Source: Escherichia phage vB_EcoM_Goslar
Sequence record: NC_048170.1
Length of the DNA: 64,000 bases
Reading direction: 5' to 3' (one strand)
In this document: positions 6,868 through 60,150 of the stretch, piece by piece
Layout: the number at the start of each line of letters is the position of its first letter
How positions within the stretch are numbered: position 1 is the first letter of the stretch
Translations under genes and position numbers: made by a program
The notes under the pieces: model-generated
The model's database searches: none
Told to the model about the DNA's origin: nothing
What the model saw: only the letters and a program-made list of their open reading frames with translations

Positions 6868-7413
6868 TTATCCTGGATAAATAGTGATGATATCACCAAT
6901 GACGGTTGTGGCACCGGCGTAAAGATGAGCCGGAGATACATCGTGTTGGTTTGTCACAGTAAGATCCAATCGACCACGCCAAACCACGGAGGTATTCGCG
7001 ATGGGGATAGAAATCTTTTTGGATATATCGTCACGAAAATCAATAACAGTGGCAAGGGTAACCGCATCAAAATCAACGTCGGGGTCAAAGACGAACCCGT
7101 ATTGATCTGAAATCGCCCGAATAATCGCATGTATAGTTGTTGTCTCGACGGACTCTAAAACGATTTTTACCGGTATTCCTAAAAATGCCTTCGCGATATC
7201 GCGTCGAGCGTAAACGATAAAACTTTCACCACACCACTTTGTTCCTTCATTTGCTGTGACGATCACTTTTGCCCTGTTAGCACCAGAACTCCCATCCAAG
7301 GTTAATGTAAGATCGGAGTTGCTGAACACGCTACCGTTACGTTGGTTTATCAACGTAATCAGTTCGTCTTTCCATGGCGGGTAAAGTGAACGCATAAGCG
7401 CACCCTCCTCCAA
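6868..7413 (-). CDS. tail fiber-associated protein (181 aa) consisting of the shared N-terminal module
   Basis: MRSLYPPWKDELITLINQRNG...RRDIAKAFLGIPVKIVLES...YGFVFDPDVDF aligns with N-termini of 1..1081 and 49134..50585 proteins; immediately upstream of fiber gene. Confidence 0.6.
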   Translation of the reverse strand: MEEGALMRSLYPPWKDELITLINQRNGSVFSNSDLTLTLDGSSGANRAKVIVTANEGTKWCGESFIVYARRDIAKAFLGIPVKIVLESVETTTIHAIIRAISDQYGFVFDPDVDFDAVTLATVIDFRDDISKKISIPIANTSVVWRGRLDLTVTNQHDVSPAHLYAGATTVIGDIITIYPG

Positions 7414-7600
7414 TAATCAAATTAAAATGTAAAACGCCTCGAAACCGGAGTGCGATTCGAGGTAAACGTAAACAGTCCAGACGACCGCATAAAATTCCGC
7501 GCATATTGCCCCTCTACCCCGACAAAGCGAGATAGAGGGGAGGATAATACGATTATGCTACTACACTCCAAAGTTCATGGGGCGGTAATCGCCCCATCGG

Positions 7601-10600
7601 TTAAATTGTTGGTTTTACATCGCGTAATAGGGCGATATAATAGCCTAATCCTCGGAGGATCTCCCCGCTCCAGAAACCAAAATACATTCCGTCTCTGCCG
7701 AGATTAGCGCTATCTGGTGCAGGACTCCATCCACCATTCATTACGTCATCAACGGTGTAGCGGTTGATGTAGTTTTCAACGATTTCGTTATAAGCATTAA
7801 CCGCAACAGAATAGCCTTTATCGTTGGGATGTCCGTACAACATTGCTAACGACGCACCCGCCAACCATAATCCTGCCATATGACCAGTAAAGTCGTTCGG
7901 GATAAAAGCAGGAGGTTTATCCATCGGAAAATCCGTAGGTGATTGATAAGCGTTTTCCTGTTGATACGTAAACAAGAAATCAATCCAATGACTGATGTAA
8001 GTGGTTAACTTCTCAGGGACAGCCAAACCACGATCGAGCAGTCCAGCATAAAGCCTCACCGCTGAAAAGAAAGCCCTCGGCTGATAACCAGACCATGCTG
8101 TCTGATCGCCGAAATGGTACATCGTAAAATCATTAACTTTTGATCCGCTTGGCGCATCCCAACGATCCCACACGTACGCACTTGCCCCTGGCCCTAAAAC
8201 CCCGAATTTCTGATAATACCACTGCTGTGAGTCATACCAGAAATTCACAACATTCTGAATCATGAGGTCACGTCGTTCAGCCGATACGTCCATATCCAGG
8301 AAGACCCATGGATGCTGGTAGCCGGGATAAGGCTGACCGCGCCAACTGTCGAACGTCGGTGCGTTAGGGATATAGTTGTTAGAGAACGGAATAATACCCG
8401 GAGTATAAGGCAATGGATCCAGACGTTGGTTGACAATCGTACAATCGCCAACACGCAATGTGCCCTCTGCCTCAAAGATTGCTTTTAACGTAAACAGCAT
8501 GGTATATCCGTCATCCGTGGTGTAAGTTGACGGTGGATTGTTGATGGCGTAAAGCTTAAATACCCCTTCAGCGATATCGCTGCCATCAGGCAAGAACAGA
8601 ATTTCAGTTGAACCGTCGCCCCACACAGGTGCGGAAGGTTTAGGGTCAGTATCAGCATGGCCAGGTTGATACCCTGAGAGCCTCCATCCGTTCGCCGAAA
8701 GCGTCAATGTATTTCTTGCTGTGGTGGCCGGTAGCATATACCACCATCGCCAACCATTTGCATCTTCTACACGAACGTTGTAGTCAATCGACGCGAAATA
8801 ACTGACCTGTCTTACGATCTGTTTTGCGGTTGGATTGAATTCAAATTGCCCGCCTGCCGCAGTAAGCTGCGCTTTTAAGAACAACCCATCCCAGGAATCT
8901 TCCGCTGCTTCGCTGAATTCTGTTGTGATTGCGACATCGTCTTTCCAGCCGACTTTATCAGCCGATATCAACACAGAACCTGTAACAGCATCACCGGTTG
9001 GCGTTGAAACTTCATCAACCGCATCAGCAGGAATCAACGAGCCTATTTTGAAATCCCATCCTTTCGGTTCAGCGCTGGAAGGTAATACCAGCTTGTACGT
9101 TTTGGCTTTCGCTTCGGTTTTGTCCAAAGAAAGCGAAAGTGAAATCTCAACCGGAATTGCAATACCTGCCGTATCCTTACCTCCGCAGGTTACACGAAGA
9201 ATTGAATCACGATTGACGCGGAACGGAATGGCCTGCTGTTCAAGATAAATTTGTGCTGAAGATGCTTGAATCACGATCCAGCCATCGGCATCACGTGTGA
9301 TTGTGAACGGTGCTTTCGATGGATAGGTATACGTGTAAGCGATACCATCGGTGTCGTAACGATCGGTTCCTTTTACCTGACGGAAGAACTTATCGTTGGC
9401 GTCGATACGGGTATATTCTTCAATCGTAAACAAAGATGCCTTGTACGCTTTCTGATAACGCTCCTGCTGCGTTAAACGGTATAAGGTGTAGGCTGCTTCA
9501 CAAAACCACTGTTCAGCGTCTGACGCGTTTCCCATGTAGTCTCTGGTGACCGGCACCTGGATCGGTCGGTTATGCTGACACTCGTTCGTTTTGATGAGGT
9601 ATCCGCCATATTCGACAGGAACGCGGGGTGCCCACGCAACCAAATAAGAACCGCTGACGGATTTATCTTTGAGTACGATGGTACCTACCTCATCGTCAGT
9701 ACACGCTTCAAGATCGTCCCCGTCAGCACTTACGTAACGTTTTGTGCGTAACGCAACTTTCTCGATAGGGAACACCGTACCCTTTGTATCCCAGTCAATC
9801 GTCCCATCATCATTGGTTTTGAACACATCGGCGTTCAAATTCTGCCAGCCGAGTTTACCCTCATAGACCTGAACAACAAGATCCATGTATTCCCCGAACG
9901 TTGGTGCCCCATGTGTTATTTTCCCGATACCGTTGGTGAATGTAACCGCTGTGTCATGGAAACCCCCGTGTGTTGGGTAATCGTCTTTTGCAAGAGGATA
10001 ATGAGCCAACACCGGTTGCTTACCATTAACGATCCAGTTAGCGATCCAGCGTGTCGGTGTATCCGGTGGTTCAAGGCCTGCGTAGAACGCTTTTATATAC
10101 GCATCGAACGATGACTCTGCTAATGCGAGATAATGCGCTTTAAGCTTGGTATCATCCGTTGTATGACTGAATATACCCGCACCCAGAATTAACAACGACT
10201 GTCCTTCTGTTGTTGCGTCACCATCCGGTTGTGCTTCTTGTCGTGTTGCTGCAATGAAATGGCGGTTGTTTACCATCACCCCGCTTTCATTTAACACGTA
10301 ATGATCGGTTTCTGGATCGGTAAACGTTCCTGTGTTTCGGGTTAAGAATCTTGCATGACCATAACCAACGAAATTAACCGGCGACGCTGTAATCATCCAT
10401 TTACCGATAAGTTGAGCAACATCATTATAACGCTCGGATGCGGTGATTTGTTTCACGTACCAGTCTTTATGGTTAAATGTCCAAAGCAGGAAGTAATAAG
10501 TTGTATCGATTTCCATCACCGGGAACGTTGGTGTTAACGGCTCCAATGTTAAGTAGTTGCTCCAGTCAATCTGTCCGCCAACAACCGATGGGGTAATCTC

Positions 10601-11210: not shown

Positions 11211-12041
11211 TTAATCGTAACTAAAATAAAGTTTGCTGCTGACGCCGCTATCGGAACGAGGTTTTAATACCAGAACAGAGCTTCCGAACGACGGAAGTAT
11301 TGGAACATCTAAATCGTTCGCATCGGCAACTTTTCCATTATAAACGACATTGGCTGTTGTGATGAGTTCCCAAGCTAAGGTATAACTCATTGAAATCAGC
11401 GACGAGGCTAAACGGAATGCGTTGTATCCTTCTGGAGTATCTCCAACCGACATCGAACGTATCGCATCTTGCGGCGGTAAATTTAGCTTGATGCCGTAGG
11501 TGCTGAATGTGTGGAAATCCCCTTGTTTACTATCTTCTGGATAATACGAGGTTAGCGGTTCTCGCACCGTAATCAGTTCGCTAATATCGGTACTTACATC
11601 TTTTCGTGCGAGGAATTGAAACGTACCGTGCCATGATGCCGACGCGTCAGAACGAACGGGAACAGATATGGTTTTCTCGCCGCTTTCAAATTTAACCTGT
11701 GACGCTAACGCTGAAGAATCAAAGATCGTTAAATCGATCTTCAACCCATACTTCTTAAACAGCTGCGTTAAGCAGTCTGCTATCGTCGTCTTATCAGCAA
11801 CGACAATAAAAGGTTGGTGTTTGATAAAGAGCTTATTAATGTCTCGACGTTGAAGATAAACCTGTACGGGGTCTTCGACGTAGTAAACCGATTGTGGTGC
11901 AGGGGCTATAGAAAGGCGTAACCGACCCGATGCACCATACCAGGCTGGCGTTAACGTAATGTCTGACAGGGACAACGGATGCTGGAGATAGGCGTTTATT
12001 TTAGATAACACTTCCTCCTGCCATGATGCTTCAGGATACAT
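11211..12041 (-). CDS. hypothetical protein (276 aa), tail-module associated
   Basis: ORF track; first gene after strong terminator at 12098..12161. Confidence 0.5.
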   Translation of the reverse strand: MYPEASWQEEVLSKINAYLQHPLSLSDITLTPAWYGASGRLRLSIAPAPQSVYYVEDPVQVYLQRRDINKLFIKHQPFIVVADKTTIADCLTQLFKKYGLKIDLTIFDSSALASQVKFESGEKTISVPVRSDASASWHGTFQFLARKDVSTDISELITVREPLTSYYPEDSKQGDFHTFSTYGIKLNLPPQDAIRSMSVGDTPEGYNAFRLASSLISMSYTLAWELITTANVVYNGKVADANDLDVPILPSFGSSVLVLKPRSDSGVSSKLYFSYD

Positions 12042-12182: not shown

Positions 12183-12761
12183 TTAGTAAGGAATCAGATC
12201 GTTAAGCTTTTCTTCTTCAATGACAAAGAAGTTGTTCTGGTCGTCTAAATCTGTTAACATGACTTGTCCGACAGTAAAGCACGTGCCGCCCTTCTTAGGC
12301 ATCCATACCGGCTCATTCGTTACCTTATCGGGATACCATTTGAAACGATTGGTATCCAAGAAGAACGCTGCTTTGTTCGCTTTATCGGTTGAACGATAGC
12401 TAACCAATGCAGGCCACTCAATCCAGGTATTCGTACACGGTACATGTAAAGGATACCAGGCACGCCAGCGTTTGCCTGGGTTGCTAGGATCAACCCAATA
12501 CTCGGCAGTCAATACAGCATCTTTATAGTGTTTCTGCATTAACATTTCGAGCACAAGCTCATTGCCTTTTGATGCATCTAAAGTCACTTCCGCCATATAA
12601 AGAGATTTAGGTAATCCAGACTGTTTTGCGGCTGGCGTTACAACACCGGTAACCAACGGTCTGCTCGGTTTACGTTTCTGTTCTTTCCGACGGGTGTAAA
12701 AGAATAGTCCGACAGATACGGCAACAAGTATAATAAACAACACTACCTTAATCCAATTCAT
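12183..12761 (-). CDS. membrane-anchored protein (192 aa, N-terminal transmembrane helix)
   Basis: MNWIKVVLFIILVAVSVGLFFYTRRKEQKRK hydrophobic N-terminal segment followed by basic stretch. Confidence 0.5.
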   Translation of the reverse strand: MNWIKVVLFIILVAVSVGLFFYTRRKEQKRKPSRPLVTGVVTPAAKQSGLPKSLYMAEVTLDASKGNELVLEMLMQKHYKDAVLTAEYWVDPSNPGKRWRAWYPLHVPCTNTWIEWPALVSYRSTDKANKAAFFLDTNRFKWYPDKVTNEPVWMPKKGGTCFTVGQVMLTDLDDQNNFFVIEEEKLNDLIPY

Positions 12762-14156: not shown

Positions 14157-14414
14157 TTAAAATGCATTGATTGGACTGTTCAACGCTTTATCACGGATTT
14201 GAATCGCCGCCAGCATTGCTTTCTGGTACGAATCGTAGGCATCGACAGAAACAGTCGTATCAACCAATTCCTTTAATGCGGATTCAGCCGCTTTTACGCG
14301 GACGCGGAACTTGGTGATTGCGTTATCTTTGTTACGATAAACCGTGATGTGGTGCAGCGGTTGAACGTTAGTTTTATTGGTTTTAACAGATTTAGTTGCT
14401 TTGATCGTTTTCAT
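14157..14414 (-). CDS. hypothetical protein (85 aa)
   Basis: ORF track. Confidence 0.4.
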   Translation of the reverse strand: MKTIKATKSVKTNKTNVQPLHHITVYRNKDNAITKFRVRVKAAESALKELVDTTVSVDAYDSYQKAMLAAIQIRDKALNSPINAF

Positions 14415-14454: not shown

Positions 14455-14493
14455 TTTAACAGCATAAACCCTTCCTGCGTAAGGCAGGAAGGG
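14455..14493 (-). terminator. rho-independent terminator-like hairpin (10-bp stem CCCTTCCTGC, loop gtaag, then UUUAUGCUGUU on minus strand)
   Basis: Inverted repeat at 14469..14493, just downstream of 14508..15005. Confidence 0.55.
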
Positions 14494-14507
14494 CGTACGG
14501 ATTTGTT

Positions 14508-15005
14508 TTACGTGTGTCGTCGTTTACCAAAGAAAATGTGGCTATCTACCACGGTGATATTGGTAGCATGTTTTCTGAAATGTTTAGGGCGAAGATGTTT
14601 CGCGTTAAAGAATACGGCTCCTCGTGTTGGGTCGGCTTTATGGTAAGCCGCAATGTCAGTATAACGTAATGTTGCGACCTCTCGTGCTATTGCTCTTGCT
14701 CGCTCAAAAGCAGCACGATCGCGTATGACAATACGCCTTTGTTTTGTCCAGGGGAATTGACCTCTTTGCAGTACGACGTCTTTGACGTTCGTAGGGAATC
14801 GGTAGTCCATAGATCGATTATGTATTAAAAACGCCACGGAGTATTGCCCTTTTACAGATTCGCCTCTGGCTTCCATATACACAGCACATGCGACGATCTC
14901 TTTCCGGCAATCGATTCTAGGTCCTGCGTTCACTGATGCTTGACTGAACGGTGTAATAAGCAACATAACAAGCCCTAAAATCAACGTGTGTAAAATACCT
15001 TGCAT
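14508..15005 (-). CDS. SleB-like cell wall hydrolase with N-terminal signal peptide (candidate endolysin)
   Basis: Signal-like N-terminus MQGILHTLILGLVMLLITPFSQASV; CAVYMEARGES...AFLIHNR...QRGQFPW matches SleB/CwlJ-type hydrolase motifs as recalled. Confidence 0.6.
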   Translation of the reverse strand: MQGILHTLILGLVMLLITPFSQASVNAGPRIDCRKEIVACAVYMEARGESVKGQYSVAFLIHNRSMDYRFPTNVKDVVLQRGQFPWTKQRRIVIRDRAAFERARAIAREVATLRYTDIAAYHKADPTRGAVFFNAKHLRPKHFRKHATNITVVDSHIFFGKRRHT

Positions 15006-15257
15006 CTTAATAACCTCACGATAAGGTGCTGTCCACTGGCGTCTTGATAACGCATCCCGTCATCGGGTTGTTCTATTCAGCGGGCAGCAGGTTAGCGTCA
15101 GATGTTTGCCCGACATCCACGACAGAAATAAACGGTACTGAAAATACGGTCTCCTCTGGTTTGGCAATAAACATAACGTTGGATAACAGAACCCATTTCC
15201 CGCATCCAACGCGGTAAAGGTGTACATCGTTTGAAGTCATATAGTTTCTCAAAGATG

Positions 15258-15578
15258 TTAACCTCTACCGTCGAGCCATAGGTTGTATTTATCCCGAAGG
15301 TATGGCTCACGATAAATACGTCGATAGACTTGATGCGGTATAAACTTACAATTTACGAGTTCGTCGCTTAATTTATGCCGTCGCTCCATACCGTTGTGAA
15401 TACGACGTATCTCCCGGATATTAAAGGTTGTTTTATTCAAGAGAATAGACATAATGGCGGATCGATGATCCAGATTAAAGATCGCCATCACGCTTCGTAT
15501 CTCGCGTAAAACAACTTCTCTATCGACAAGGATGCGACTGTTGAGCTTAAGATTCTCCGTGATACCCATAACCTTCAT
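15258..15578 (-). CDS. hypothetical protein (start uncertain)
   Basis: ORF track 15258..15662 overlaps upstream gene by 116 nt; internal ATG at 15578 reduces overlap. Confidence 0.3.
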   Translation of the reverse strand: MKVMGITENLKLNSRILVDREVVLREIRSVMAIFNLDHRSAIMSILLNKTTFNIREIRRIHNGMERRHKLSDELVNCKFIPHQVYRRIYREPYLRDKYNLWLDGRG

Positions 15579-15918
15579 CCTCGACACGACGACACATCGG
15601 TAAAAATAAACACCAGCTTGTTGCACTGAGGATCGCCGTTGCGATGATATTTGCGATATCACTCAGTCGAGCATCGACCTGCCACATAACAAGCATAAAA
15701 AGAACGTACGCGAACCCATACACGACAAACCGTTTTATGTTACGTGTCGACCATGTACAAATATACAAAAGGGGAAGCTGCCCTACAACACAAACGATGG
15801 TTCGGATAACGTAATAAACGCGTTCCGTCGATGTTTCAAAATCGATACCCACAGCAAAAATCCCAATCAGTATAAAAGTGATAAAGCAATAGATTTTTGC
15901 GTATTCTTTTAAACTCAT
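15547..15918 (-). CDS. small membrane protein (123 aa, multiple hydrophobic segments); holin candidate
   Basis: Hydrophobic runs FITFILIGIFAVGI and FAYVLFMLVMW; near SleB-like hydrolase. Confidence 0.5.
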   Translation of the reverse strand: MSLKEYAKIYCFITFILIGIFAVGIDFETSTERVYYVIRTIVCVVGQLPLLYICTWSTRNIKRFVVYGFAYVLFMLVMWQVDARLSDIANIIATAILSATSWCLFLPMCRRVEDEGYGYHGES

Positions 15919-15934
15919 AACTTTTCCTGTTCGT

Positions 15935-16168
15935 TTATTTGCGTTTTCCTACATTCCTCAACAAGGAAACGATAACGAATACCGCTATCATCAAAAAGAC
16001 GAACCATAACCCTACGTTAATTCGGGCAGCCGGTTCATCTACCATGAAGAACATCATTCCACAAAACCCAATCGCCATCCATGCTAAGACCATTCCTGTT
16101 AATCCCCGTAGTAGCATATGTCCCATCATGAACTCCTTCTTACTTTTTCTGATAAAGCGACGATTCAA
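15935..16168 (-). CDS. small membrane protein (77 aa, two hydrophobic segments)
   Basis: LTGMVLAWMAIGFCGMMFFMV and LWFVFLMIAVFVIVSLL. Confidence 0.45.
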   Translation of the reverse strand: MNRRFIRKSKKEFMMGHMLLRGLTGMVLAWMAIGFCGMMFFMVDEPAARINVGLWFVFLMIAVFVIVSLLRNVGKRK

Positions 16169-16310
16169 ATTTTAGAAACACCGCTAACGCGAGTGCGATT
16201 AATAACGCACGTACCCACATACCTCCTTGACAACTGTTATACAACATAAAGACCAGAGCGATGCCGCCCATATGCAGGCGGCACTTATCGAACAGTGTTG
16301 GTTTATACAT
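16140..16310 (-). CDS. small membrane protein (56 aa), below ORF-track length cutoff
   Basis: Hand translation from ATG 16310: MYKPTLFDKCRLHMGGIALVFMLYNSCQGGMWVRALLIALALAVFLKFESSLYQKK, stop TAA at 16142..16140. Confidence 0.35.
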   Translation of the reverse strand: MYKPTLFDKCRLHMGGIALVFMLYNSCQGGMWVRALLIALALAVFLKFESSLYQKK

Positions 16311-16530
16311 AAGAGATTAAACGTTGAATGATTTTTACTTTACCTTTACCTGGGCCTTTCTTGCAGCGATTCAACAGACGGATACGGGTTCGAGTTACCA
16401 CGTCGCCATCATAATCAGCCTGGAACTGTGATAAAAAAGCAGGCTGTATCGGATCGACACCAGGATTGCTATAGAAAGGATTGAGACTTAAAAGAGAGTT
16501 AGCTGGAATCATCGTATTGTCCTTACTCAA
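16303..16530 (-). CDS. small basic protein with K-K-G-P-G-K-G-K motif (family member 1)
   Basis: ...RLLNRCKKGPGKGKVKI; motif shared with 34696..34893, 34920..35126, 35116..35262. Confidence 0.45.
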   Translation of the reverse strand: MSKDNTMIPANSLLSLNPFYSNPGVDPIQPAFLSQFQADYDGDVVTRTRIRLLNRCKKGPGKGKVKIIQRLISYV

Positions 16531-16881
16531 TTATTTACCCAGATAGAGGTATTCACCACCCTGAACAACACCGGTTGCCGGATCGACAAGTATACGAACC
16601 CGTGCGTAGGTCTTGAAAGAGGGGTTGAAAACTTCGAAGTCTGCCACTTTCAATTTCACGCTGGGGTTGGTCGGGTTCTTAACTCCAGGGAGTTCTTTCG
16701 GGGTACCGAAATCAACACCGCATTCTTCAAGGTCTGCTGGTGTCATGCTCTCCATGGCCATGTAGATTGCTTTTGCTTTATCGTAAACTTCTGGGCTATC
16801 CAGCAATCCAGCCTGCGCTGAACCGACAACACTACCGAACAGAATAGCAACAGCAACAAACAATTTAGTTAACGTTTTCAT
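16531..16881 (-). CDS. secreted protein (116 aa, signal peptide)
   Basis: MKTLTKLFVAVAILFGSVVGSAQA-GLLD signal-like N-terminus. Confidence 0.55.
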   Translation of the reverse strand: MKTLTKLFVAVAILFGSVVGSAQAGLLDSPEVYDKAKAIYMAMESMTPADLEECGVDFGTPKELPGVKNPTNPSVKLKVADFEVFNPSFKTYARVRILVDPATGVVQGGEYLYLGK

Positions 16882-16917: not shown

Positions 16918-17340
16918 TTAACGTACGGCCACTACACTGTTAGCGCATGCCTGAATATCATCGGTATTTACGATGATGGTTTCGTTAAACGCACGAATAC
17001 GCGCACGACGTGCTTCTTTAAGGCTGGCGATTGCATTAGCAGCTTGATCTGTATTCGCAAGGCTAATAACCGGGATCAAACGCATGTCAGGACTACAGAT
17101 ATTCAATGCTTGGTATACACGTCCATTGATTCCTACGGTATCAGACATCGGATAGTGCGCACGGCATTGAAATTGACCCATGACAACAAGCGAACGATCG
17201 GAGATACCAATCTGATAACGACCGTCTTCGCTGTAGGCGTAGCAGTTATTCCCACGAGCCATCCAGTTAGCCTGTGCTTGCGTGCTAACAAAAGCCAGGG
17301 TGGTGACGATAGCGAATACGATATTTTTGAACAGTTTCAT
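16918..17340 (-). CDS. secreted protein (signal peptide)
   Basis: Start placed at ATG 17340 (MKLFKNIVFAIVTTLAFVSTQAQA-NW); ORF track gives longer 16918..17409. Confidence 0.55.
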   Translation of the reverse strand: MKLFKNIVFAIVTTLAFVSTQAQANWMARGNNCYAYSEDGRYQIGISDRSLVVMGQFQCRAHYPMSDTVGINGRVYQALNICSPDMRLIPVISLANTDQAANAIASLKEARRARIRAFNETIIVNTDDIQACANSVVAVR

Positions 17341-17398
17341 GATAAAGATCCTTATTGAAATAAAATCGGTATAAAGGCCCCCATTTAGGGGGACCTGA

Positions 17399-17716
17399 TT
17401 AGTTTGCACGTAAGAAATGACCCAGAACCGTTACGATTGGAAACAGCCCCGTAACAGTATTATCACCCGAAAACATCATCATTGTTCCGTTAACGGTGAT
17501 GAAACGGATGTCGGTTGCGGACCCATCGATAGCGACAAAACGCATCGAGTTCGGTGGAAGGTCCTCAACCACTTCCACGAGGTACTCGCGATTATCAAAG
17601 GCTTCTTTAACACGACGCATGAAACGAATCAAGGTTCCTTCCGCGTCAGCTTCCAAATGACCTAAGATATCGCGATTATTACGAATAGCAAATACAGCCA
17701 TTTTAAACATACTCAT
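17399..17716 (-). CDS. hypothetical protein (105 aa)
   Basis: ORF track; preceded by conserved 20-nt motif. Confidence 0.45.
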   Translation of the reverse strand: MSMFKMAVFAIRNNRDILGHLEADAEGTLIRFMRRVKEAFDNREYLVEVVEDLPPNSMRFVAIDGSATDIRFITVNGTMMMFSGDNTVTGLFPIVTVLGHFLRAN

Positions 17717-17782
17717 CTTGACATCCTTTTATATTGGATTGGTTGCTAATAATTCAAGGTGAAGCTGATTACTGCATTGCTT

Positions 17783-17806
17783 CACCTAAGTAATATAGCC
17801 GTGAAA
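17783..17806 (-). promoter_or_regulatory. conserved 20-nt intergenic motif (copy 1), candidate promoter element
   Basis: taagtaatatagccgtgaaa at 17787..17806, identical to 46790..46809; both 45-70 nt upstream of a minus-strand start; minus-strand reading TTTCACGGCTATATTACTTA contains TATATT. Confidence 0.35.
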
Positions 17807-21660: not shown

Positions 21661-21688
21661 CGGCATAAGCCCTCCCATGCCGGGAGGG
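21661..21688 (-). terminator. hairpin CCCTCCC-atgcc-GGGAGGG downstream of 21694..22122
   Basis: Inverted repeat 21670..21688; weak U-tract (CUUAUGCC) on minus strand. Confidence 0.45.
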
Positions 21689-21693
21689 TACAA

Positions 21694-22123: not shown

Positions 22124-22657
22124 TTAAGCTCCTTTGTGTTTTACGGACGATGTTAACCAGGACGATCTTACCGTGAAACCCTCAGACTCGTAGAACGCCT
22201 GGGCTTCGTCGTTATCAGCACGAACATCCAGACCGATAGAATGACCACCGCATCGGTAAGCGATGTTACGTGCTTCATTCATCAAGGCGTGGCCGATCCC
22301 GCGTCCACGGTATTCCGGTTTTACAATAATCGATGTAACATCGTGAATACCCATATGGCTCTCTGTATTCACTTCCAAGAGACCCACTGGTACTGAAGCG
22401 ATAGCATCGATCATAACGACCAACTTTGCGGTGTCTGGTAAACGCTTTTCTAATTCTAAAGCATCGTACTCGCGTTTTAAATCGGGGATATTCTCAAACA
22501 TAAACGTGGTAGCCCATGCCTCTGATTCTACATCGTCGAGAATACGGTACAGCTCACGAATCTGTCGTTTATGTGGGTAAAGGTGTGGATCGGCAGCCGT
22601 TGAGGCGATAACGCAATAGAACGGTCGTTCATTAATAACTACTGTTTTGATGCTCAT
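22124..22657 (-). CDS. GNAT family N-acetyltransferase
   Basis: Motif A ...IVKPEYRGRGIGHALM... and motif B ...AQAFYESEGF... Confidence 0.7.
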   Translation of the reverse strand: MSIKTVVINERPFYCVIASTAADPHLYPHKRQIRELYRILDDVESEAWATTFMFENIPDLKREYDALELEKRLPDTAKLVVMIDAIASVPVGLLEVNTESHMGIHDVTSIIVKPEYRGRGIGHALMNEARNIAYRCGGHSIGLDVRADNDEAQAFYESEGFTVRSSWLTSSVKHKGA

Positions 22658-23160
22658 GCTAAAATTCCCTCATTACCTAACAGTCGATTACGATGACGTC
22701 GGTACATTTGACAAAGTGTTGTGATTTGATAATGTTTGTTGTAACGTACCTCGATACGTTTTTGCACCTCTTTCCATGGAAGTTTATCGTATTGCCGATA
22801 ACGATGGATTTCATTTAACATACGAAGACGAGTAGGATCGGTGTTCTTTATCGTCGTGAGCTTCACACGTTGATATCCACGCTGTAGTCCCGATTCGGAA
22901 TACGTGACGTCAAACTCATCTTGAATGATGGTAATGATCTCCCGCCACCGACGGTTCTCGCCGTCACGTAAATGGACAACCCGTGATAAGATATCGTTCC
23001 GATTACGATGACTCAGTTTAATGTTAAGCATTGAAGCAATCGCGCTAATTGCTCTCTGACTCCGTCCTAACGCTTCACCTATTTCTTTCGATGTCATGAC
23101 GCCCGCGTTTCGGCGTATGAATGCGATTTCGGTTGTTGTGTATTCTTTACCTGCTGCCAT
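22654..23160 (-). CDS. HTH-like repeat protein, tandem paralog 6 of 6
   Basis: Module YTTTEIAFIRRN...SKEIGEALGRSQRAIS plus C-terminal W-x-EV...Q-YRR module shared with paralogs. Confidence 0.5.
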   Translation of the reverse strand: MAAGKEYTTTEIAFIRRNAGVMTSKEIGEALGRSQRAISAIASMLNIKLSHRNRNDILSRVVHLRDGENRRWREIITIIQDEFDVTYSESGLQRGYQRVKLTTIKNTDPTRLRMLNEIHRYRQYDKLPWKEVQKRIEVRYNKHYQITTLCQMYRRHRNRLLGNEGILA

Positions 23161-23624
23161 TTCTTACCACGTGTGTTATAATAGTAACGCTGACAAAGAT
23201 GTGTGTGATGGTACTCCCGTTTGAACTCGACGCTGATAATGCGAGCAACTTCTCTCCAGTTAACTCCTTCATGCCGGAGTGCTGTAATACGGTCTGAAAT
23301 TTTGCACCATTCATCTGGATCGTATCGTCGTAGCTTGAGTCGTCGTATTACGGAGGCGACACTCGCTCTCGATCGGCCAAGATGATTTGACAGTTGTTTA
23401 ACCGAGTATCTGTGGATATTGTCACGAATATAGGAAATCTCGTTGTTCGTATATGCCTCATTGGTTCTCGACGAAGGGAACAGCATATACAACTTATTCT
23501 TAATCGCGCTTTCTGTGCGTTGAAATACAGAAGCCAGCTCACTAACCGGTGGTCTGGGTATCTGGTCCGCGTAATTCTCGAGGCGTGAGAGTTCCTCATC
23601 TGTCCAGCGACGGTATTTGCGCAC
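23094..23624 (-). CDS. HTH-like repeat protein, tandem paralog 5 of 6
   Basis: RRWTDEELSRLENY...SELASVFQRTESAIKNK and second module YTNNEISYIRDN...VKQLSNHLGRSRASV; start proposed at GTG 23624 preceded by AAAGGAG (ORF track 23094..23726). Confidence 0.5.
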   Translation of the reverse strand: MRKYRRWTDEELSRLENYADQIPRPPVSELASVFQRTESAIKNKLYMLFPSSRTNEAYTNNEISYIRDNIHRYSVKQLSNHLGRSRASVASVIRRLKLRRYDPDEWCKISDRITALRHEGVNWREVARIISVEFKREYHHTHLCQRYYYNTRGKKWQQVKNTQQPKSHSYAETRAS

Positions 23625-24099
23625 GGGCAACTCCTTTGTTTTTCGTGTAGTAACACCAACGTTGATACAACGCATGTTTATTCGTCGTAATCCCAAATTT
23701 AACAACAACGTCGTATGTGATAACATTCCAATTTTGGGTAACGTTAAGTCGTTCCGCGATAAACGCGATAATCGCTTCCCGTTCTTGCTTTGTTAACGCA
23801 CGACGAATTCCATTAAGCCGTATAAACTGACGAACCGAGTCATACGAACGGTTTAAATCGTACGCAATCTCCCTCAACGATTTTTGTTTGATTACGGACT
23901 TGATGTACGCGCGTTCTTCTTCCGTATACGGTCGATGCTTTTGGCGTTGACGTATTCCCAAACGTCCCAGACGCGCGTCGATGCTGGCGCGTGTTCGTCC
24001 TGTCCGTTGTGCGATTTCATCAATCGTCAGCGACGTGTTCAAGTACAGGTGTATAACATCTTTTAACTCATCGTTACGCCACGGCCGAGGTCGTCCCAT
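23596..24099 (-). CDS. HTH-like repeat protein, tandem paralog 4 of 6
   Basis: PWRNDELKDVIHLY...IDEIAQRTGRTRASIDARL; YTEEERAYIKSV...LREIAYDLNRSYDSVRQ; C-terminal NW...FGITTNKHALYQRW. Confidence 0.55.
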   Translation of the reverse strand: MGRPRPWRNDELKDVIHLYLNTSLTIDEIAQRTGRTRASIDARLGRLGIRQRQKHRPYTEEERAYIKSVIKQKSLREIAYDLNRSYDSVRQFIRLNGIRRALTKQEREAIIAFIAERLNVTQNWNVITYDVVVKFGITTNKHALYQRWCYYTKNKGVARAQIPSLDR

Positions 24100-24577
24100 C
24101 TTGTATCCCTCTTTTCTTTCTATGATGCCACCAACGCTGATAAACAGCCTGCTTCGTACGTGTTATACCGAAATGCGCATTAACCCGTTCAGCAATGTGG
24201 TGCCAATCCTGTGTTTCTTCTAACAATGTATCAACGAAGGCTATGAAGATCTTAGTATCATCCTCGCTTAACCGCTTGAAACCATGACGGTGTGCTATCG
24301 TTCTAATACTGTTTGGATCCCTGTTTAAATCGCGTGCGAGTTGTTTGTAACTTTTGTGTTTGCAGTGCACTCTGATATATTCCAACTCATCGACACTGAA
24401 ACGTTTATGCGGTTTACGACGTTCAACATTTAAGTATATCAACCTCGATTTAATTGCACCGTACGTTGTTTCCATGATTTCTGCGATTTCACGGATTTTT
24501 AATTTCGGGTGACGATAGTACAATTCCAGCAACTGTTCATCATCCTTACGATTCCATCGTCGTACTGGAGGTTTCAC
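24074..24577 (-). CDS. HTH-like repeat protein, tandem paralog 3 of 6
   Basis: RRWNRKDDEQLLELY...IREIAEIMETTYGAIKSRL; FSVDELEYIRVH...YKQLARDLNRDPNSIR; C-terminal DW...FGITRTKQAVYQRW. Confidence 0.55.
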   Translation of the reverse strand: MKPPVRRWNRKDDEQLLELYYRHPKLKIREIAEIMETTYGAIKSRLIYLNVERRKPHKRFSVDELEYIRVHCKHKSYKQLARDLNRDPNSIRTIAHRHGFKRLSEDDTKIFIAFVDTLLEETQDWHHIAERVNAHFGITRTKQAVYQRWWHHRKKRGIQDGTTSAVA

Positions 24578-24590
24578 AACGAGATTTCTC

Positions 24591-25058
24591 CTATTCTACG
24601 CGTTTTAATGCTTGAGTGTAGTAGAGGGCATGAACACCGCTTAACGTGTAATGGGTGTTAAATTCGTTATTGATGATATTCTGTATTCTCTTCCAGGTGT
24701 TATTCTCTTTTCTAAGGGTGTGTATTCGATGATAGATCATCTCTCGACGTTGCGCTTTGCATGCAACAATACCGTAACGGTAGCAGAGTTTAGCGATTGC
24801 GTCCACGCTACGGTTGAACATCGCTGCAGCTTCTTTCACGCTATGTGTCTTAAGATAATCGGCTAACATCACACGTTCTTCGAAACAACAATAGCGGTGA
24901 CGCGACATGAGTTTCCAGCGCTTGCGATTGCGGTTAATTCGACCTTGAACAGAGCCTTCGGTTCGGTCAAGCCGTGCCGCAATCTCTTGCATCGGGATAC
25001 CGTTTCGGTACAGGGTAATCAATATCGCGTCTTCTTCGGGTGTCCAGTCCTTGACCAT
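24591..25058 (-). CDS. HTH-like repeat protein, tandem paralog 2 of 6
   Basis: KDWTPEEDAILITLY...MQEIAARLDRTEGSVQGRI; second module ...VKEAAAMFNRSVDAIAK. Confidence 0.55.
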   Translation of the reverse strand: MVKDWTPEEDAILITLYRNGIPMQEIAARLDRTEGSVQGRINRNRKRWKLMSRHRYCCFEERVMLADYLKTHSVKEAAAMFNRSVDAIAKLCYRYGIVACKAQRREMIYHRIHTLRKENNTWKRIQNIINNEFNTHYTLSGVHALYYTQALKRVE

Positions 25059-25070
25059 AGCGCCACCCCA

Positions 25071-25391
25071 TCAACGTCTTACTTTAAGCGTTATCTTGTT
25101 TCGAAAACAATAACACCGGATGGCGTGTACGCTACGATTCATTATTTCAGCAATCTCTTTTAGCGTATGTTTCTTTGCAAGCGTGGCAACCCTAACCCTT
25201 TCTTCTGGCGTGTATACTCCCCCGCGAGGTGGTAGATCACCCCATCGTTTCCTCAACTTGAGGTAACGTGCGCGAATAGAGCACGGTGTTCGATTCATGC
25301 TTCGCGCTACTTCTTTATAGCTCGCTTTTGGTGATGTACTAAGAATAAGCAGCAACGTTTCATCTTCTTTATCTGTCCAACGTTTACCCAT
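25071..25391 (-). CDS. HTH-like repeat protein, tandem paralog 1 of 6 (two modules only)
   Basis: KRWTDKEDETLLLIL...YKEVARSMNRTPCSIRARY; YTPEERVRVATL...LKEIAEIMNRSVHAIR. Confidence 0.55.
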   Translation of the reverse strand: MGKRWTDKEDETLLLILSTSPKASYKEVARSMNRTPCSIRARYLKLRKRWGDLPPRGGVYTPEERVRVATLAKKHTLKEIAEIMNRSVHAIRCYCFRNKITLKVRR

Positions 25392-28473: not shown

Positions 28474-28553
28474 AAAATTGTCAAAATGTACATCAGCATA
28501 ACGCCCGTGCCCGCCCGCGATGGGAGGGACACAGGCAATACGCTTTTATTTCG

Positions 28554-34708: not shown

Positions 34709-34893
34709 TACATCGGATTAGGTGCTTTATGGCATTTATAAATACCTACTTTCTTCTGTCTACCTTTACCTGGGCCTCGTTTAACGCGTTTGTTATAAAC
34801 ACGATCCAAATATCGAGTGGCGATAAATCGGGATGAATACACCGGGTCGATATATTCTAGCGTACCTGCTTCTGTCACTTCGAGACATTGCAT
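34696..34893 (-). CDS. small basic protein with K-R-G-P-G-K-G-R motif (family member 2)
   Basis: ...YNKRVKRGPGKGRQKKV. Confidence 0.4.
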   Translation of the reverse strand: MQCLEVTEAGTLEYIDPVYSSRFIATRYLDRVYNKRVKRGPGKGRQKKVGIYKCHKAPNPMYCWR

Positions 34894-36972: not shown

Positions 36973-37005
36973 AGACGGCATAAAAGCCTCCCATTACGGG
37001 AGGCT
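36973..37005 (-). terminator. rho-independent terminator (8-bp stem AGCCTCCC/GGGAGGCT, loop attac, UUUUAUG on minus strand)
   Basis: Inverted repeat 36985..37005 just downstream of 37018..37566. Confidence 0.6.
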
Positions 37006-37017
37006 CTATTAATCAGC

Positions 37018-44961: not shown

Positions 44962-44988
44962 CAGCATAAACCCTCCCCGAAGGGAGGG
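44962..44988 (-). terminator. terminator-like hairpin CCCTCCC-(UUCG loop)-GGGAGGG followed by UUUAUG on minus strand
   Basis: Inverted repeat 44971..44988 immediately downstream of 44999..45556. Confidence 0.55.
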
Positions 44989-44998
44989 CGGTTGGCGA

Positions 44999-46744: not shown

Positions 46745-46785
46745 CGCACGTACCTCTTTGAATCTATTAATAAATTTTCTTTACT

Positions 46786-46809
46786 CACGTAAGTAATATA
46801 GCCGTGAAA
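46786..46809 (-). promoter_or_regulatory. conserved 20-nt intergenic motif (copy 2), candidate promoter element
   Basis: taagtaatatagccgtgaaa at 46790..46809, identical to 17787..17806; about 45 nt upstream of start of 46058..46744. Confidence 0.35.
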
Positions 46810-49133: not shown

Positions 49134-50585
49134 ATGAAACTCAAACAAAGCTGGAAAGACGAACTCCTTGCGCTAGTAAACAGCAAAAACAGCTTACAAC
49201 TGACGTTAGACGATGTAAAATTTGAACTGACGGCACCGGTAAGCGAAGTGCCTGGAACGGTTGTTGTTACGATCAAACCGAACGACGATAGCCGTTACTT
49301 TAACGAGCAATCTCTGACCTACGTTCGTCGAGACATCGCTAAAAACTTCACCGGGATCCCGTTACGGGTTATCGTTAAAAATGATACCGCCGTAAGGGAT
49401 ATCATCAATACGATCGCTGAACGTTACGGATTAGTATTTGACACAACCGTCGACTTCCTCGAATCCGAGCTGAATAAACAAATTACGTTCGCAGACACCG
49501 GTATTAAAGACATTACGGTTCCGGTTGCAAACACGTCTTATGTTTGGGCGGGTAATCTTCAGTTCAATATCGCTAACGATACGTTGAGCTTGATTACGAT
49601 CATCAAGCAAACCAATCTTACGAATCTGGTTTATCTGGATGGTGTTGAAGCTGACACATCGGGTTCGTTACTATTAGCAACAACCTCGGTTATCGGCGAA
49701 AACGGAAATGCCGAAACAACTGAAGGTGTCCTTGACGCCGCGTACTTCCAGAATATCCTGAACGTCATGGTTCGTTATGGTGATATTAACAGCGAACAAA
49801 TGCAACAAGCAATGCAGACAATTAACCAAAGCGAAGACGCTCGTAGAGTAGAAGTGCGGTCATACGGTGACGCCGAGTTACTGGTAACCACCAAGAAAGA
49901 TTGGGTTATCGGTAGCCTTAAGGGTGCTATGGTTGTTGGTCACGCTTCACCTAAACCGATCCAATACGTTCTTAAAACAAAAGGCGGCACCATTATATTG
50001 TCATTAGATGGTTGGACAAATGTCAATATCGATTGGGGTGATGGGAATAAGACGACGCAGGACTCAGGCGATAATGAATATCAGCACAATTATGCTGACA
50101 CTACAGAACGTACAATCGTCGCTACGGGTACCCCTACCAACACTGAAGATACAGACGTACAGCAAAGCTTCACCGGTGGTAACATCACTGAAATCGTTGA
50201 CTGGAACAACGGATTACCTAAGGCCCCATCATTCCTTGCGGCGAACAGTTTAATTAAGGTTCCCGATTATATCCCGGCATATTGGACGTCGTTAGAAAGT
50301 ATGTTTACGCGATGCAGCGCTATTAACGACGTGAGCATCACCAAATGGAACACCCGCAACGTTACTTCAATGAAGGACCTCTTCTACGGTTGCGCTACGT
50401 TCAACCAACCGATCGGTTCGTGGGATGTTTCGTCTGTTAAGAATGCAGACAATATGTTGTCTGGGTGCTTCGCGTTCAATCAGGATCTGAGTGGTTGGAC
50501 ATTCCCGGCAGGCACTTCACACATCAACTACGACGGCATGACCGCCGCATGGCAGCCTGATCACAAACCACGCTTCACCGAGTAA
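49134..50585 (+). CDS. receptor-binding-like protein: shared N-terminal module plus C-terminal DUF285-like repeats
   Basis: N-terminus MKLKQSWKDELLALVNSKNS...RRDIAKNFTGIPLRVIVKND...YGLVFDTTVDF aligns with 6868..7413 and 1..1081; C-terminus WNTRNVTSMKDLFYGCATFNQPIGSWDVSSVKNADNMLSGCFAFNQDLSGW. Confidence 0.6.
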   Translation: MKLKQSWKDELLALVNSKNSLQLTLDDVKFELTAPVSEVPGTVVVTIKPNDDSRYFNEQSLTYVRRDIAKNFTGIPLRVIVKNDTAVRDIINTIAERYGLVFDTTVDFLESELNKQITFADTGIKDITVPVANTSYVWAGNLQFNIANDTLSLITIIKQTNLTNLVYLDGVEADTSGSLLLATTSVIGENGNAETTEGVLDAAYFQNILNVMVRYGDINSEQMQQAMQTINQSEDARRVEVRSYGDAELLVTTKKDWVIGSLKGAMVVGHASPKPIQYVLKTKGGTIILSLDGWTNVNIDWGDGNKTTQDSGDNEYQHNYADTTERTIVATGTPTNTEDTDVQQSFTGGNITEIVDWNNGLPKAPSFLAANSLIKVPDYIPAYWTSLESMFTRCSAINDVSITKWNTRNVTSMKDLFYGCATFNQPIGSWDVSSVKNADNMLSGCFAFNQDLSGWTFPAGTSHINYDGMTAAWQPDHKPRFTE

Positions 50586-51953: not shown

Positions 51954-53528
51954 TTACAATTCAAAATCTTCATCGATAACACGCTGGGTAAGCACCTTGT
52001 CGCTGAAGAACTCCACCTTGCGCTGATGGTATTTACGGTGCGCTTCGATAGATGTACATACCAGATACCAGAACGTTGGTGTCATTCCTTCGAACTTCCC
52101 TTTCAGCTGACGTAGGCGTCCCAATACCTGAATGTTACCGGTTCGTGACCCCATCGCTAACGTCATGAACGTCATCACCAAGTCAGGGAGGTCGATACCT
52201 GTACCTGCCGATTTCACCGTCGTAACGCTGATATCGTTATCCAACAAGACCATGAAATCTTCTTCAGCAGTATAAGGACCAATCTCTAACTCAGGAATAC
52301 GTTCACTGAGATAATGCGATAACGACTTACACATATCAACGGTTGCACAATACACCAGCATCTTCATGCCTTCCTGATACTGGTTCATGAAACCTTTGAT
52401 GATAACGGTATAGATAAAGTTGAAATAGGCGAGTTTGAGTTGCTTGTTCTTCATGATAGACTGTTCGAATATCGTGTGAGAATAAGAACCCCCAAAGCCT
52501 TTGTATCTGACTTTATCTGTACTGCGTAATCGATACGTTACCGCATTTACCGCAATGTATTTCTTGTATTCGCATTTCGCATAACGTGCTTCTTTCGGAT
52601 ACATCAAATACAACATCCGTTCGATGAACGGATCGTCGGACACTGCCGTTGCTGACAGATAGATGATTTCCGGAATATTCGCGTAACACTTCACTTTGAA
52701 CAAGAAATGCAATGCTTCGTGACATTCATCATGGATTAACAACCCAATGCCTGTTTTCTCCCAGAACTCGACAGGATGGAAAACATAAGGTGCGACACAG
52801 TTGTTCTTTTCATAATCGGTTATGTATCTCTGAAACATGTTCAGCGAGAATAACGCAATTTTGAAATCCAGCTCACCTTGTTCCACCAACGTCTGGAATT
52901 CCAGCATGCTGTAACGAGGAATGTCTGGATGTGGTGGGTCAGATTGAGCTGTGCCACGTATCTCGATAACATCGCCCGGTTCCATACCGAAGAAACTTAG
53001 CAGTGAGCTACGCCAACCAGGCATGTATCTCGGTGACAGGATAATACCCGTCCGTACACCGCGTCGGAAGGTGATCTCCTGCGACATGGCTGTTTTACCA
53101 GACCCCGTGCCTGCGGTGTTTAAGCTCATTCTGAAGGGGGTATCCTTACCCCCGTCCATGTACTCCAACCATTCTTGTTGATCTTCACGCCACGGAAACT
53201 TCCATTTCTTTACGAACTCCACTTCCTTACCTGGCACTGGATCGTGATAAACGATTTCCAACCACTCTTTTCGGATTCCTCGAGAGAAGATAAAATCCAA
53301 AAACGATTTCAACTGTTCGCGGAGTAAGTATACCTCGCTATAATCGCTTCTCGCTGCGGCATACGTGTTTATGGTATCGGTAACCATTCTCCGTGTACGA
53401 GGGTCACGCCGTTTCCTCAGATGCAAACAACGGTCTCGAAGGTAATGGCCGATAAGATGGGCAAATCGAAGTCCGTATCCGCTCAGCCTCATGCCATGCG
53501 AGAAGACGTCGATACGAGCTAACTTCAT
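51954..53528 (-). CDS. superfamily II DExH-box helicase
   Basis: Motif I GTGSGKT, motif II LIHDECHE, motif III LSATAV, motif V AGTGIDLPD, motif VI QVLGRLRQ. Confidence 0.65.
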   Translation of the reverse strand: MKLARIDVFSHGMRLSGYGLRFAHLIGHYLRDRCLHLRKRRDPRTRRMVTDTINTYAAARSDYSEVYLLREQLKSFLDFIFSRGIRKEWLEIVYHDPVPGKEVEFVKKWKFPWREDQQEWLEYMDGGKDTPFRMSLNTAGTGSGKTAMSQEITFRRGVRTGIILSPRYMPGWRSSLLSFFGMEPGDVIEIRGTAQSDPPHPDIPRYSMLEFQTLVEQGELDFKIALFSLNMFQRYITDYEKNNCVAPYVFHPVEFWEKTGIGLLIHDECHEALHFLFKVKCYANIPEIIYLSATAVSDDPFIERMLYLMYPKEARYAKCEYKKYIAVNAVTYRLRSTDKVRYKGFGGSYSHTIFEQSIMKNKQLKLAYFNFIYTVIIKGFMNQYQEGMKMLVYCATVDMCKSLSHYLSERIPELEIGPYTAEEDFMVLLDNDISVTTVKSAGTGIDLPDLVMTFMTLAMGSRTGNIQVLGRLRQLKGKFEGMTPTFWYLVCTSIEAHRKYHQRKVEFFSDKVLTQRVIDEDFEL

Positions 53529-59765: not shown

Positions 59766-59796
59766 AGGACTTCCTATTATCGAATTGAGGTACGTC

Positions 59797-60150
59797 ATGT
59801 CTAACACGCCCCTGAACGACTTTCTTAAGACAAACCCCGATGACCTCATCCACGATCTTGATTTCAGGAACGTTGTTGAGATGCATCTGGAATATTTCAA
59901 AAATGCCGGACTGGTCTCTACGATAGACATACCACCCGAACGCGCCTACGAATTCGATGGTAACTTTTATGGATTGTGTCGTGTTCTGCTCGGCGAGGGT
60001 AGCGAACCAATGCACTGGATCACCCTGAGACTCAATGGTTATCGCGACCCTACGGAATACACCGCCGATGTTCTAACCATGAAGATTGTCGATACAAGCG
60101 CAATCAACACATTAAAACAACAGTACCGCACAATCCACTACAGCGCTTAA
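59797..60150 (+). CDS. hypothetical protein (117 aa), lone plus-strand gene
   Basis: ORF track 59785..60150; ATG 59797 preceded by GAGG; followed by hairpin. Confidence 0.4.
   Translation: MSNTPLNDFLKTNPDDLIHDLDFRNVVEMHLEYFKNAGLVSTIDIPPERAYEFDGNFYGLCRVLLGEGSEPMHWITLRLNGYRDPTEYTADVLTMKIVDTSAINTLKQQYRTIHYSA

Follow-up and report, generated by a model that had tools for sequence, protein, structure and literature searches.

A predicted exported SleB-like hydrolase with a conserved leader in an envelope-protein gene unit of a phiKZ-like jumbo phage

The hydrolase and its small membrane-protein neighbours

We describe a unit of 8-9 minus-strand genes in a 64-kb stretch of phage DNA (sequence record NC_048170.1; the window) that ends in a gene for a SleB-like cell wall hydrolase, preceded by a conserved leader. 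The unit lies between two hairpins and reads, as transcribed, hairpin, g140, g116, g69, g56, g64, g123, g103, leader, hydrolase, hairpin. Six of the products are predicted to be envelope-targeted: a signal peptide or transmembrane domain (TMD) was called in 6/9 unit products vs ~5/87 elsewhere in the window (Fisher p ~4e-5), and all of these topology calls are rule-based, using Kyte-Doolittle hydropathy and sequence rules. The DNA covered comprises the window and ~45 kb of further DNA from the same lineage, in total ~110 kb of a ~240-kb genome. It was compared with close variants (L003, L004, L008, L009 and L019 among them, L019 being an IMG/VR genome) and with two sister lineages, L028 and L030. 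The unit genes are intact in 7-10 variants, and all have ribosome-binding sites and show purifying selection specific to their frame.

The hydrolase gene (14508..15005, minus strand) encodes 165 aa, with a signal peptide at residues 1-23 (nt 14937-15005) and a SleB-type catalytic domain at residues ~31-160. The protein matches Pfam PF07486 Hydrolase_2 over profile positions 1-100 of 100 (E 3.9e-16; 60 bits, cut-off 27) and PHROG 938, annotated as 'endolysin', and has a sequence match to the SleB catalytic domains 4F55 and 4FET. An AlphaFold2 (AF2) model based on 4 near-identical sequences was unusable, with a predicted local distance difference test (pLDDT) score of 46.7; the final model, built from 55 diverse homologues, reaches a pLDDT of 87.1 overall and >90 across residues 31-160. 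When this model was searched against the PDB with Foldseek, only 4F55 and 4FET were significant (probability 1.0, TM-score 0.71-0.73), and the modelled fold is that of a lytic transglycosylase with a single SleB-type domain. The hydrolase sequence YMEARGE aligns to YGESRGE of 4F55 (motif E-[AS]-R-G-E). Its glutamate, E45, is invariant among the 55 homologues, as are N63, R64, Q83, F84, W86 and H156, and we take the equivalent Glu to be the catalytic residue in SleB. A bona fide SleB orthologue was rejected: the hydrolase is without the N-terminal peptidoglycan-binding domain and scores 41 bits against the full-length SleB model TIGR02869 (cut-off 236.5), with only model positions 88-199 matched.

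The N-terminus of the hydrolase, MQGILHTLILGLVMLLITPFSQA|S, has the n-h-c layout of a signal peptide, with a 12-residue Kyte-Doolittle mean of 2.69, a helix-breaking Pro at -5 and an S-Q-A site; its n-region is atypical in having no Lys or Arg. An equivalent hydrophobic segment is present in 51/55 diverse homologues, a few having lipoboxes instead, and small-x-small sites occur in homologues from rV5-like, T5-like and other phages (AQA|K, TYA|K, VLA|S, SHA|T). We rejected a signal-anchor-release (SAR) endolysin; the h-region TLILGLVMLLIT is rich in Leu, Ile and Val with one Gly and is too hydrophobic, and a canonical AXA site follows it. Because the signal peptide is of the cleavable Sec type and not a SAR anchor, export without a holin pore is the natural reading. 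The conserved Cys pair C33 and C40 beside the catalytic motif would fit a periplasmic protein. Very likely the hydrolase is a Sec-exported protein, with muralytic activity predicted from sequence and model. The initial annotation of this region had proposed a signal-peptide-bearing cell wall hydrolase exported by Sec in place of holin-gated release, and the profile match, the SleB fold, the signal-peptide layout and its recurrence among the homologues bear out both parts.

That annotation also listed three consecutive small membrane genes near the hydrolase. They lie upstream of it and do encode four, two and one to two hydrophobic segments, in the order g123, g64 and g56; the start given for the second, TTG 16168, has to be moved to ATG 16129/16126. 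The third (g56; 16140..16310, minus strand) had been noted as an unannotated 56-aa open reading frame (ORF); it has one long or two short hydrophobic segments and proved real. The ORF is intact in 9/9 variants, has a ratio of nonsynonymous to synonymous substitution rates (dN/dS) of ~0.32 in its own frame only, and has homologues in both sister lineages (L028:5996-6196 and L030:5203-5403; 35-45% identical, E 7e-13 and 1e-9). Judged by this conservation, g56 is a genuine conserved gene.

The g64 gene (15935..16129, minus strand) encodes 63 or 64 aa; the product has two TMDs and a short loop, DEPAARIN, and ends in the basic sequence RNVGKRK. A GAAGGAG ribosome-binding site lies ahead of ATG 16129/16126, other gene callers give 63 aa, and the first ATG is replaced by ACG in the relative L003; on these grounds TTG 16168 is unlikely as the start, and g64 is therefore without overlap with the g56 ORF. 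By charge, the topology is predicted to be N-in/C-in, which is class-II-holin-like, by features that are not specific to holins. A dual-start holin motif with an antiholin isoform was rejected, as the MMGHM start is not conserved (ACG in L003, GTG/ATG-IWLK in L008 and L019). The family is an orphan with lineage-specific homologues only: a profile of 20 sequences found 3 clusters among 1.84 billion representatives, and g64 had no match in PADLOC, Pfam, PHROGs or NCBIfam. No holin family in Pfam, PHROGs or NCBIfam was matched by g56, g64 or g123, which speaks against the lysis cassette of the initial annotation. In the same unit, g64 and the hydrolase are 0.9 kb and 2-3 genes apart, with a promoter upstream that is early-type by consensus resemblance.

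Between them, g123 (15547..15918, minus strand) is a variable accessory gene, whose 123-aa product has four TMDs and an acidic C-terminus. It is absent from L008, L019, L028 and L030; missing in close variants and in sister lineages, it is dispensable and cannot be an essential lysis gene. The segment 15256-16155 is hypervariable inside a region that is otherwise 90-100% conserved, with the first TMD of g64 and g103 down to 50-77% identity; within the lineage, this segment runs from the g64 N-terminus through g103.

Leader, sister lineages and promoter-like motifs

The leader (~250 nt; 15006..15261, minus strand) is better conserved in nucleotide sequence than the genes on either side; it is 97-100% identical within the lineage, and the adjoining g103 falls to 50-65%. 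At its 5' end is an invariant TTAAC-N15-TATG element (15257-15261 and 15238-15241). Long identical nucleotide blocks of the leader are common to the window, L028 and L030, though the hydrolases are ~50% identical. Some pipelines call a doubtful 55-codon ORF here, g55 (15073-15240), which has a poor ribosome-binding site. We rejected g55 as a secure protein-coding gene because stops and a frameshift interrupt the ORF in L030; since the nucleotide blocks persist there, the constraint would act at the RNA or DNA level and not on a protein.

RNAalifold pairs arm A of the leader (15078-15101) with arm B (15014-15038), and the helix has 2 compensatory double substitutions and one GU-to-GC change between lineages. 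Arm B reaches the Shine-Dalgarno sequence GAGG at 15014-15017, and the outer pairs take in two of the GAGG bases. The A/B duplex has an energy of -23.8 kcal/mol, which was matched in 0/1000 shuffles; folding z-scores for the whole leader are modest (-2.4 and -1.9). Between the two arms, the sequence varies from lineage to lineage, and L009 has a replacement there. An Rfam scan of 13.5-18.5 kb gave no match. A helix that reaches the ribosome-binding site suggests translational control of the hydrolase, and the leader may be a new cis-regulatory RNA; with three independent lineages to draw on, its structure is a reasonable hypothesis.

The sister lineages L028 and L030 were found on other large phage contigs by a profile search seeded with diverse hydrolase homologues. 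A further contig from the metagenome scan, L033, was discarded as an unrelated chance match. The hydrolases of the two loci are 47-51% identical to that of the window, and the loci are syntenic with it, running from a GNAT acetyltransferase through small genes and the hydrolase to tail fibres. Both encode one 230-232-aa signal-peptide protein that is the counterpart of g140 plus g116: in the 232-aa protein L028:5010-5708, the N-terminal half is a homologue of g140 (E 1e-10) and the C-terminal part one of g116 (E 1.5e-4), so the two halves are split in the window and fused in L028. Next come the g56 homologue and a ~65-67-aa basic-tailed protein with two TMDs, the g64 analogue by position; an extra 80-aa protein with two TMDs is also present in these loci. 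On this comparison, the hydrolase is stably linked to one periplasmic and two small membrane-protein families, and the other genes turn over. It is always the last gene in the three lineages and has its own conserved leader, which argues for functional linkage and not an accidental neighbourhood.

Upstream of g105 and the unit is an early-type promoter element of the phiKZ family (TTTCACGGCTATATTACTTAGGTGA; 17782..17806, minus strand). Its 17-mer core occurs exactly twice in the window, at 17787-17803 and 46790-46806, both times intergenic and on the coding strand. The second copy spans 46785-46809 (minus strand), and both read TTTCACGGCTATATTACTTA(G/C)GTGA. Allowing 3 mismatches, 0.16 matches to the motif are expected, and two matches were reached in 0/100 shuffles. 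The element is conserved in L003, L004 and L019, and exact copies are also found in three of the lineage's IMG/VR contigs (L020, L022, L023). Early-promoter consensuses published for N1M2, OBP, 201phi2-1 and phiKZ (TATATTAC) match the window element (PMC7058600 Table 2). L028 has the variant TTTCACGACTACATTACCTAAGTGA directly upstream of the first module gene and no strong terminator before the hydrolase, and L030 has an early-type variant one gene further upstream of the module. We infer from these consensus matches that the module is at least partly early-transcribed. The initial annotation had held that membrane proteins not expressed late would count against its lysis cassette, and the early-type promoter touches this point by consensus resemblance.

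The second class of motif is a hairpin followed by TTATGCYG, with 13 matches in the window vs 4 expected. The hairpins are GC-rich and mostly stand between genes on the coding strand; those with (C/T)TTATGCYG include 7490-7535, 14460-14494, 21661-21690, 28494-28530, 36976-37010 and 44962-44990, besides others. The motif resembles the phiKZ late TATG promoter, in which G is the start site (PMC4666361). These elements look like combined terminators and TATG-type promoters of the phage's own RNA polymerase, and one stands 3' of the hydrolase in all three lineages. In the window this is the downstream hairpin (14468-14494, followed by TTATGCTG at 14460-14467; element 14460..14494, minus strand), the downstream boundary of the unit and the putative TATG-type start of the next one. 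Its stem has a compensatory T-A to C-G change in L008, and a hairpin with TTATGCCG likewise follows the module in L028 and L030. The gene 3' of the unit, g85 (14157-14414), encodes a soluble protein and is set off by this hairpin. The upstream boundary is a GC-rich hairpin at 17375-17396 followed by TTATACCG at 17367-17374 (element 17367..17396, minus strand), a variant of the same motif. It is kept in 5 relatives with varying stem length, and an A replacing the G (TATA, not TATG) is fixed in all of them.

Other genes of the unit and the phage

The first gene after the early-type promoter is g105 (17399..17716, minus strand), which encodes a 105-aa soluble protein with no family match and has a dN/dS of 0.26 in frame. 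Two predicted periplasmic proteins follow the upstream hairpin: g140 (16918..17340, minus strand; 140 aa) has a signal peptide ending in STQAQA|N, 5 Cys, an AAGGA ribosome-binding site and a dN/dS of 0.13, and g116 (16531..16881, minus strand; 116 aa) has a signal peptide ending in GSAQA|G, a GAGGA ribosome-binding site and a dN/dS of 0.10. A soluble basic protein of 69 aa with a KKGPGKGK motif is encoded by g69 (16303..16512, minus strand), for which the callers give 69 aa, with a ribosome-binding site and ATG at 16512. It belongs to a family of small basic proteins with (K/R)(R/K)GPGKG(K/R), several per genome, which we also see at ~34730-34830 of the window, at L028:3942-4265 and 7452-7736 and at L030:6742-7731. 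The last gene before the leader, g103 (15258..15569, minus strand), encodes a 103-aa soluble basic protein and is fast-diverging, with ~50-65% DNA identity to L008 and L019 between flanks of >90%.

The eight non-hydrolase products had no family match in Pfam, PHROGs, NCBIfam or PADLOC, and a tblastn search with their concatenated sequences found no match in 50,697 phage records. Scanning every frame and every start for lipoboxes found one real lipoprotein gene (1923-2426), beside a tail-fibre assembly gene, and no spanin partner in or near the unit. This lipoprotein was rejected as a spanin, being without a partner gene, as was g192 (12183-12761), which is also without a partner and has a periplasmic region that is not coiled-coil on reading of the sequence. 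The 1923-2426 gene (minus strand; 167 aa, lipobox LGGC, PHROG 9559) directly follows a tail fibre and its assembly chaperone, a placement that recalls receptor-blocking superinfection-exclusion lipoproteins such as T5 Llp.

By its gene content, including a split RNA polymerase, the window is part of a phiKZ-like jumbo phage genome. Beta-type subunits of a split multisubunit RNA polymerase are encoded at 53525-55531 and 57597-59930, and the window also has long tail-fibre genes and genes for thymidylate synthase, helicases and a NAD-dependent DNA ligase, the ligase assigned by Pfam domains. The RNA polymerase has a best identity of ~33-34% to sequenced or cultured phages. The locus DNA gave no megablast match among GenBank phages, PLSDB plasmids or complete E. 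coli genomes. Serratia phage PCH45 was taken as the nearest relative because its tail protein is 49% identical to the window counterpart, and it was chosen for whole-genome comparison; the unit genes have zero homologues in PCH45, the only phiKZ-like genome that was compared from end to end.

In NCBI, copies of the small proteins occur on 237-244 kb contigs under the label Salmonella enterica (serovar Newport and others). The lineage contigs include L026 (GCA_008106945.1 AAJPWQ010000001.1), P0005 and P0009, and their occurrence in isolates suggests a carrier state or pseudolysogeny. Jumbo-phage contigs of ~240 kb in Salmonella enterica isolate assemblies would bear on carrier states and on phage therapy genomics. 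The tail-fibre content of contig L005 differs from that of L002 and L004, the contigs being otherwise near-identical, which points to host-range module swapping. Several tail-fibre-associated proteins contain DUF7941 (6868-7413, 11211-12041 and 49134-50585; also L025:6282-8894). A tandem array of ~5 paralogous 106-170-aa proteins (22654-25391, minus strand) has weak Sigma70_r4, helix-turn-helix or Myb-like matches, and these are possible phage transcription factors.

Possible roles of the unit and comparison with known systems

Giving it roughly even odds (about 0.5), we read the hydrolase as an auxiliary exported enzyme inside an early envelope module, under translational control. This phiKZ-like jumbo phage would have an 'envelope module' conserved in its lineage, with the region as its downstream end. 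Once exported by Sec and cleaved, the hydrolase would attack the sacculus from the periplasm with no need for a holin pore. As a muralytic enzyme is dangerous when exported, synthesis would be restrained, with the leader helix that reaches the ribosome-binding site holding it back at the translational level. By analogy with the T5-like and rV5-like homologues, the protein is most likely an auxiliary second wall hydrolase that would weaken or remodel the wall and might help in lysis. A canonical late holin-endolysin-spanin cassette would be expected at another place in the genome, and the hydrolase is probably not its enzyme. As for the small membrane and periplasmic proteins, they probably act early, as modifiers of the envelope or as regulators, and g56 and the g64-type protein with two TMDs would be the only plausible partners or regulators of the hydrolase.

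Several observations weigh against this interpretation. No second peptidoglycan-hydrolase domain was found in the window and the ~45 kb of lineage DNA (~110 of ~240 kb), and as the sole such domain there the hydrolase could be the sole endolysin. The promoter classes are assigned only by likeness to published consensuses, and in the window lineage a hairpin stands between the early promoter with g105 and the remaining unit. The leader helix is known from only three independent lineages, and the conserved TATG element could be a dedicated promoter that gives the hydrolase a later transcript of its own.

The lack of a second muralytic domain in the ~110 kb also favours a self-sufficient Sec-dependent lysis cassette, in which a periplasmic endolysin would be unleashed when a pinholin-like g64, g56 or both depolarise the inner membrane; we consider this possible but not probable. 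In its favour, g64 is class-II-holin-like, being 63-64 aa long with two TMDs, a C-terminus that is basic and, judged by charge, an N-in/C-in topology, and the g56 family and the basic-tailed protein with two TMDs stay adjacent, upstream of the hydrolase, in the sister lineages. There is bioinformatic precedent in the Vequintavirinae, where a SleB-like signal-peptide protein adjoins a 65-70-aa protein with two TMDs (PMC7344957; A73_73/74). However, there is no holin-family homology, no conserved dual-start motif and no spanin, and g64 and the hydrolase have two to three unrelated genes between them. The promoter upstream is early-type, the homologous enzymes of other phages are distinct from the holin-linked endolysin, and the unit genes are without homologue in the phiKZ-like phage PCH45. 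What survives of the initially proposed cassette is the exported muralytic domain with membrane proteins in the same unit, two of which keep their place in the sister lineages. The label 'lysis cassette' is not established, because the partners are orphans, g123 is dispensable, there are no spanins, the promoter looks early and the homologues are secondary enzymes elsewhere.

A bolder version of lysis without a holin-gated endolysin, in which a Sec-exported SleB-type enzyme is timed by its RNA leader and g56/g64 form a new trigger family, seems to us doubtful. Translation of the upstream region, or through it, might then open the mask on the ribosome-binding site, or a late transcript might start from the TATG element. 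If true, a phiKZ-like jumbo phage would have a lysis pathway that is timed by RNA and independent of a holin pore.

It is also unlikely, in our view, that the small proteins are early superinfection-exclusion or host-envelope takeover factors, with the hydrolase a non-lytic remodelling enzyme or an unrelated neighbour. T4 Sp is periplasmic and T4 Imm is a small membrane protein, and these are exclusion analogues by analogy only. The early-type promoter would suit such a role, as would the hypervariable segment and the presence or absence of g123, which are typical of arms-race genes, and the orphan state of all eight partner products, without a tblastn match in 50,697 phage records. Yet no homology to exclusion proteins or defence-related families was found, and in three lineages the hydrolase closes the unit and has a conserved leader of its own. 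It is highly improbable that there is no functional module and that short hydrophobic ORFs happen to lie next to a degenerate hydrolase gene. Chance often produces short hydrophobic ORFs, and the hydropathy scan turned up several spurious cases, but purifying selection, ribosome-binding sites, invariant catalytic residues, sister-lineage synteny and the enrichment of envelope proteins (p ~4e-5) effectively refute such a chance arrangement.

The locus adds a jumbo-phage family member to the SleB-like hydrolases, with a conserved set of envelope proteins in the same unit and a conserved structured leader. This leader gives a concrete way to test how phages prevent an exported wall hydrolase from doing harm too early; the leader and the stable linkage of g56, the protein with two TMDs and the hydrolase are the parts most deserving of experiment.

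Matches to the family of SleB-like signal-peptide hydrolases occur in at least 925 phage records, mainly of enterobacterial phages, T5-like, rV5-like and others. Our literature search found no experimental assignment of a role for signal-peptide SleB-like phage hydrolases, and we know of none. T5-like and rV5-like phages have such an enzyme as well as a separate holin-linked endolysin (PMC11180984, PMC11370258, PMC3326045). In T5-like phages, the SleB-like gene is in the early region, ~40 ORFs from the holin/lysozyme pair (PMC3326045, PMC11180984). Their second hydrolase (AKFV33 ORF81, Salmonella phage atrejo gp099) is of the same family as the window enzyme, with ~31-33% identity and a signal peptide, and is encoded far from the holin/endolysin pair; unlike the window gene, it is without small membrane-protein neighbours, and T5-like phages demonstrably have another endolysin.

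Among the Vequintavirinae, Septuagintavirus and others have a SleB-like hydrolase that coexists with an M15 peptidase (PMC11370258). In Certrevirus, a 65-aa protein with two TMDs that overlaps the SleB-like gene was proposed as a class II holin, and the CB7_83 SleB-like enzyme with its signal peptide was described as toxic in E. coli, 'data not shown' (PMC7344957). For the window enzyme, this toxicity of a homologue is the only hint of peptidoglycan-degrading activity. The enzymes of this group (Pectobacterium CB7 gp83/gp82, Cronobacter CR3_087, Escherichia A73_73/A73_74) are of the same Pfam family as the window hydrolase, with 33-38% identity. They share a cleavable-type signal peptide, a nearby protein with two TMDs and a place among small hypothetical genes, not in a classic cassette. 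In contrast, their gene for the protein with two TMDs overlaps the 3' end of the hydrolase gene, whereas the membrane genes of the window are upstream and separated by other genes. The partner sequences are unrelated, and the window unit is in a phiKZ-like jumbo phage and has a conserved leader.

Sec-exported or SAR endolysins with holins or pinholins include Lys44 of fOg44, R21/S21-68 of phage 21 and Lyz of P1. These share with the window the concept of holin-pore-independent Sec export and, possibly, a small trigger with two TMDs; the window enzyme is of another family, with no SAR domain and no sign of membrane-potential control. Bacillus SleB, the germination-specific lytic transglycosylase (4F55, 4FET), shares the catalytic-domain fold and the E-[AS]-R-G-E motif. 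The window hydrolase differs in its Gram-negative phage context, and its substrate cannot be the muramic-lactam of the spore cortex.

With phiKZ itself, the window shares a jumbo phage genome, RNA polymerases of the split multisubunit kind and the early-promoter family. The phiKZ cassette gp141/141.1/142/143/144 comprises a spanin pair, a holin that has one TMD and a large domain in the cytoplasm, and two cytoplasmic proteins, a regulator and a transglycosylase that carries a wall-binding domain; phiKZ-like phages conserve the pair of holin and regulator (PMC12894885). These architectures are not apparent in the window unit by inspection of gene content, the gp141-144 sequences themselves not being compared. 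If the hydrolase were the sole endolysin, the unit would stand in sharp contrast to this recently defined cassette of phiKZ.

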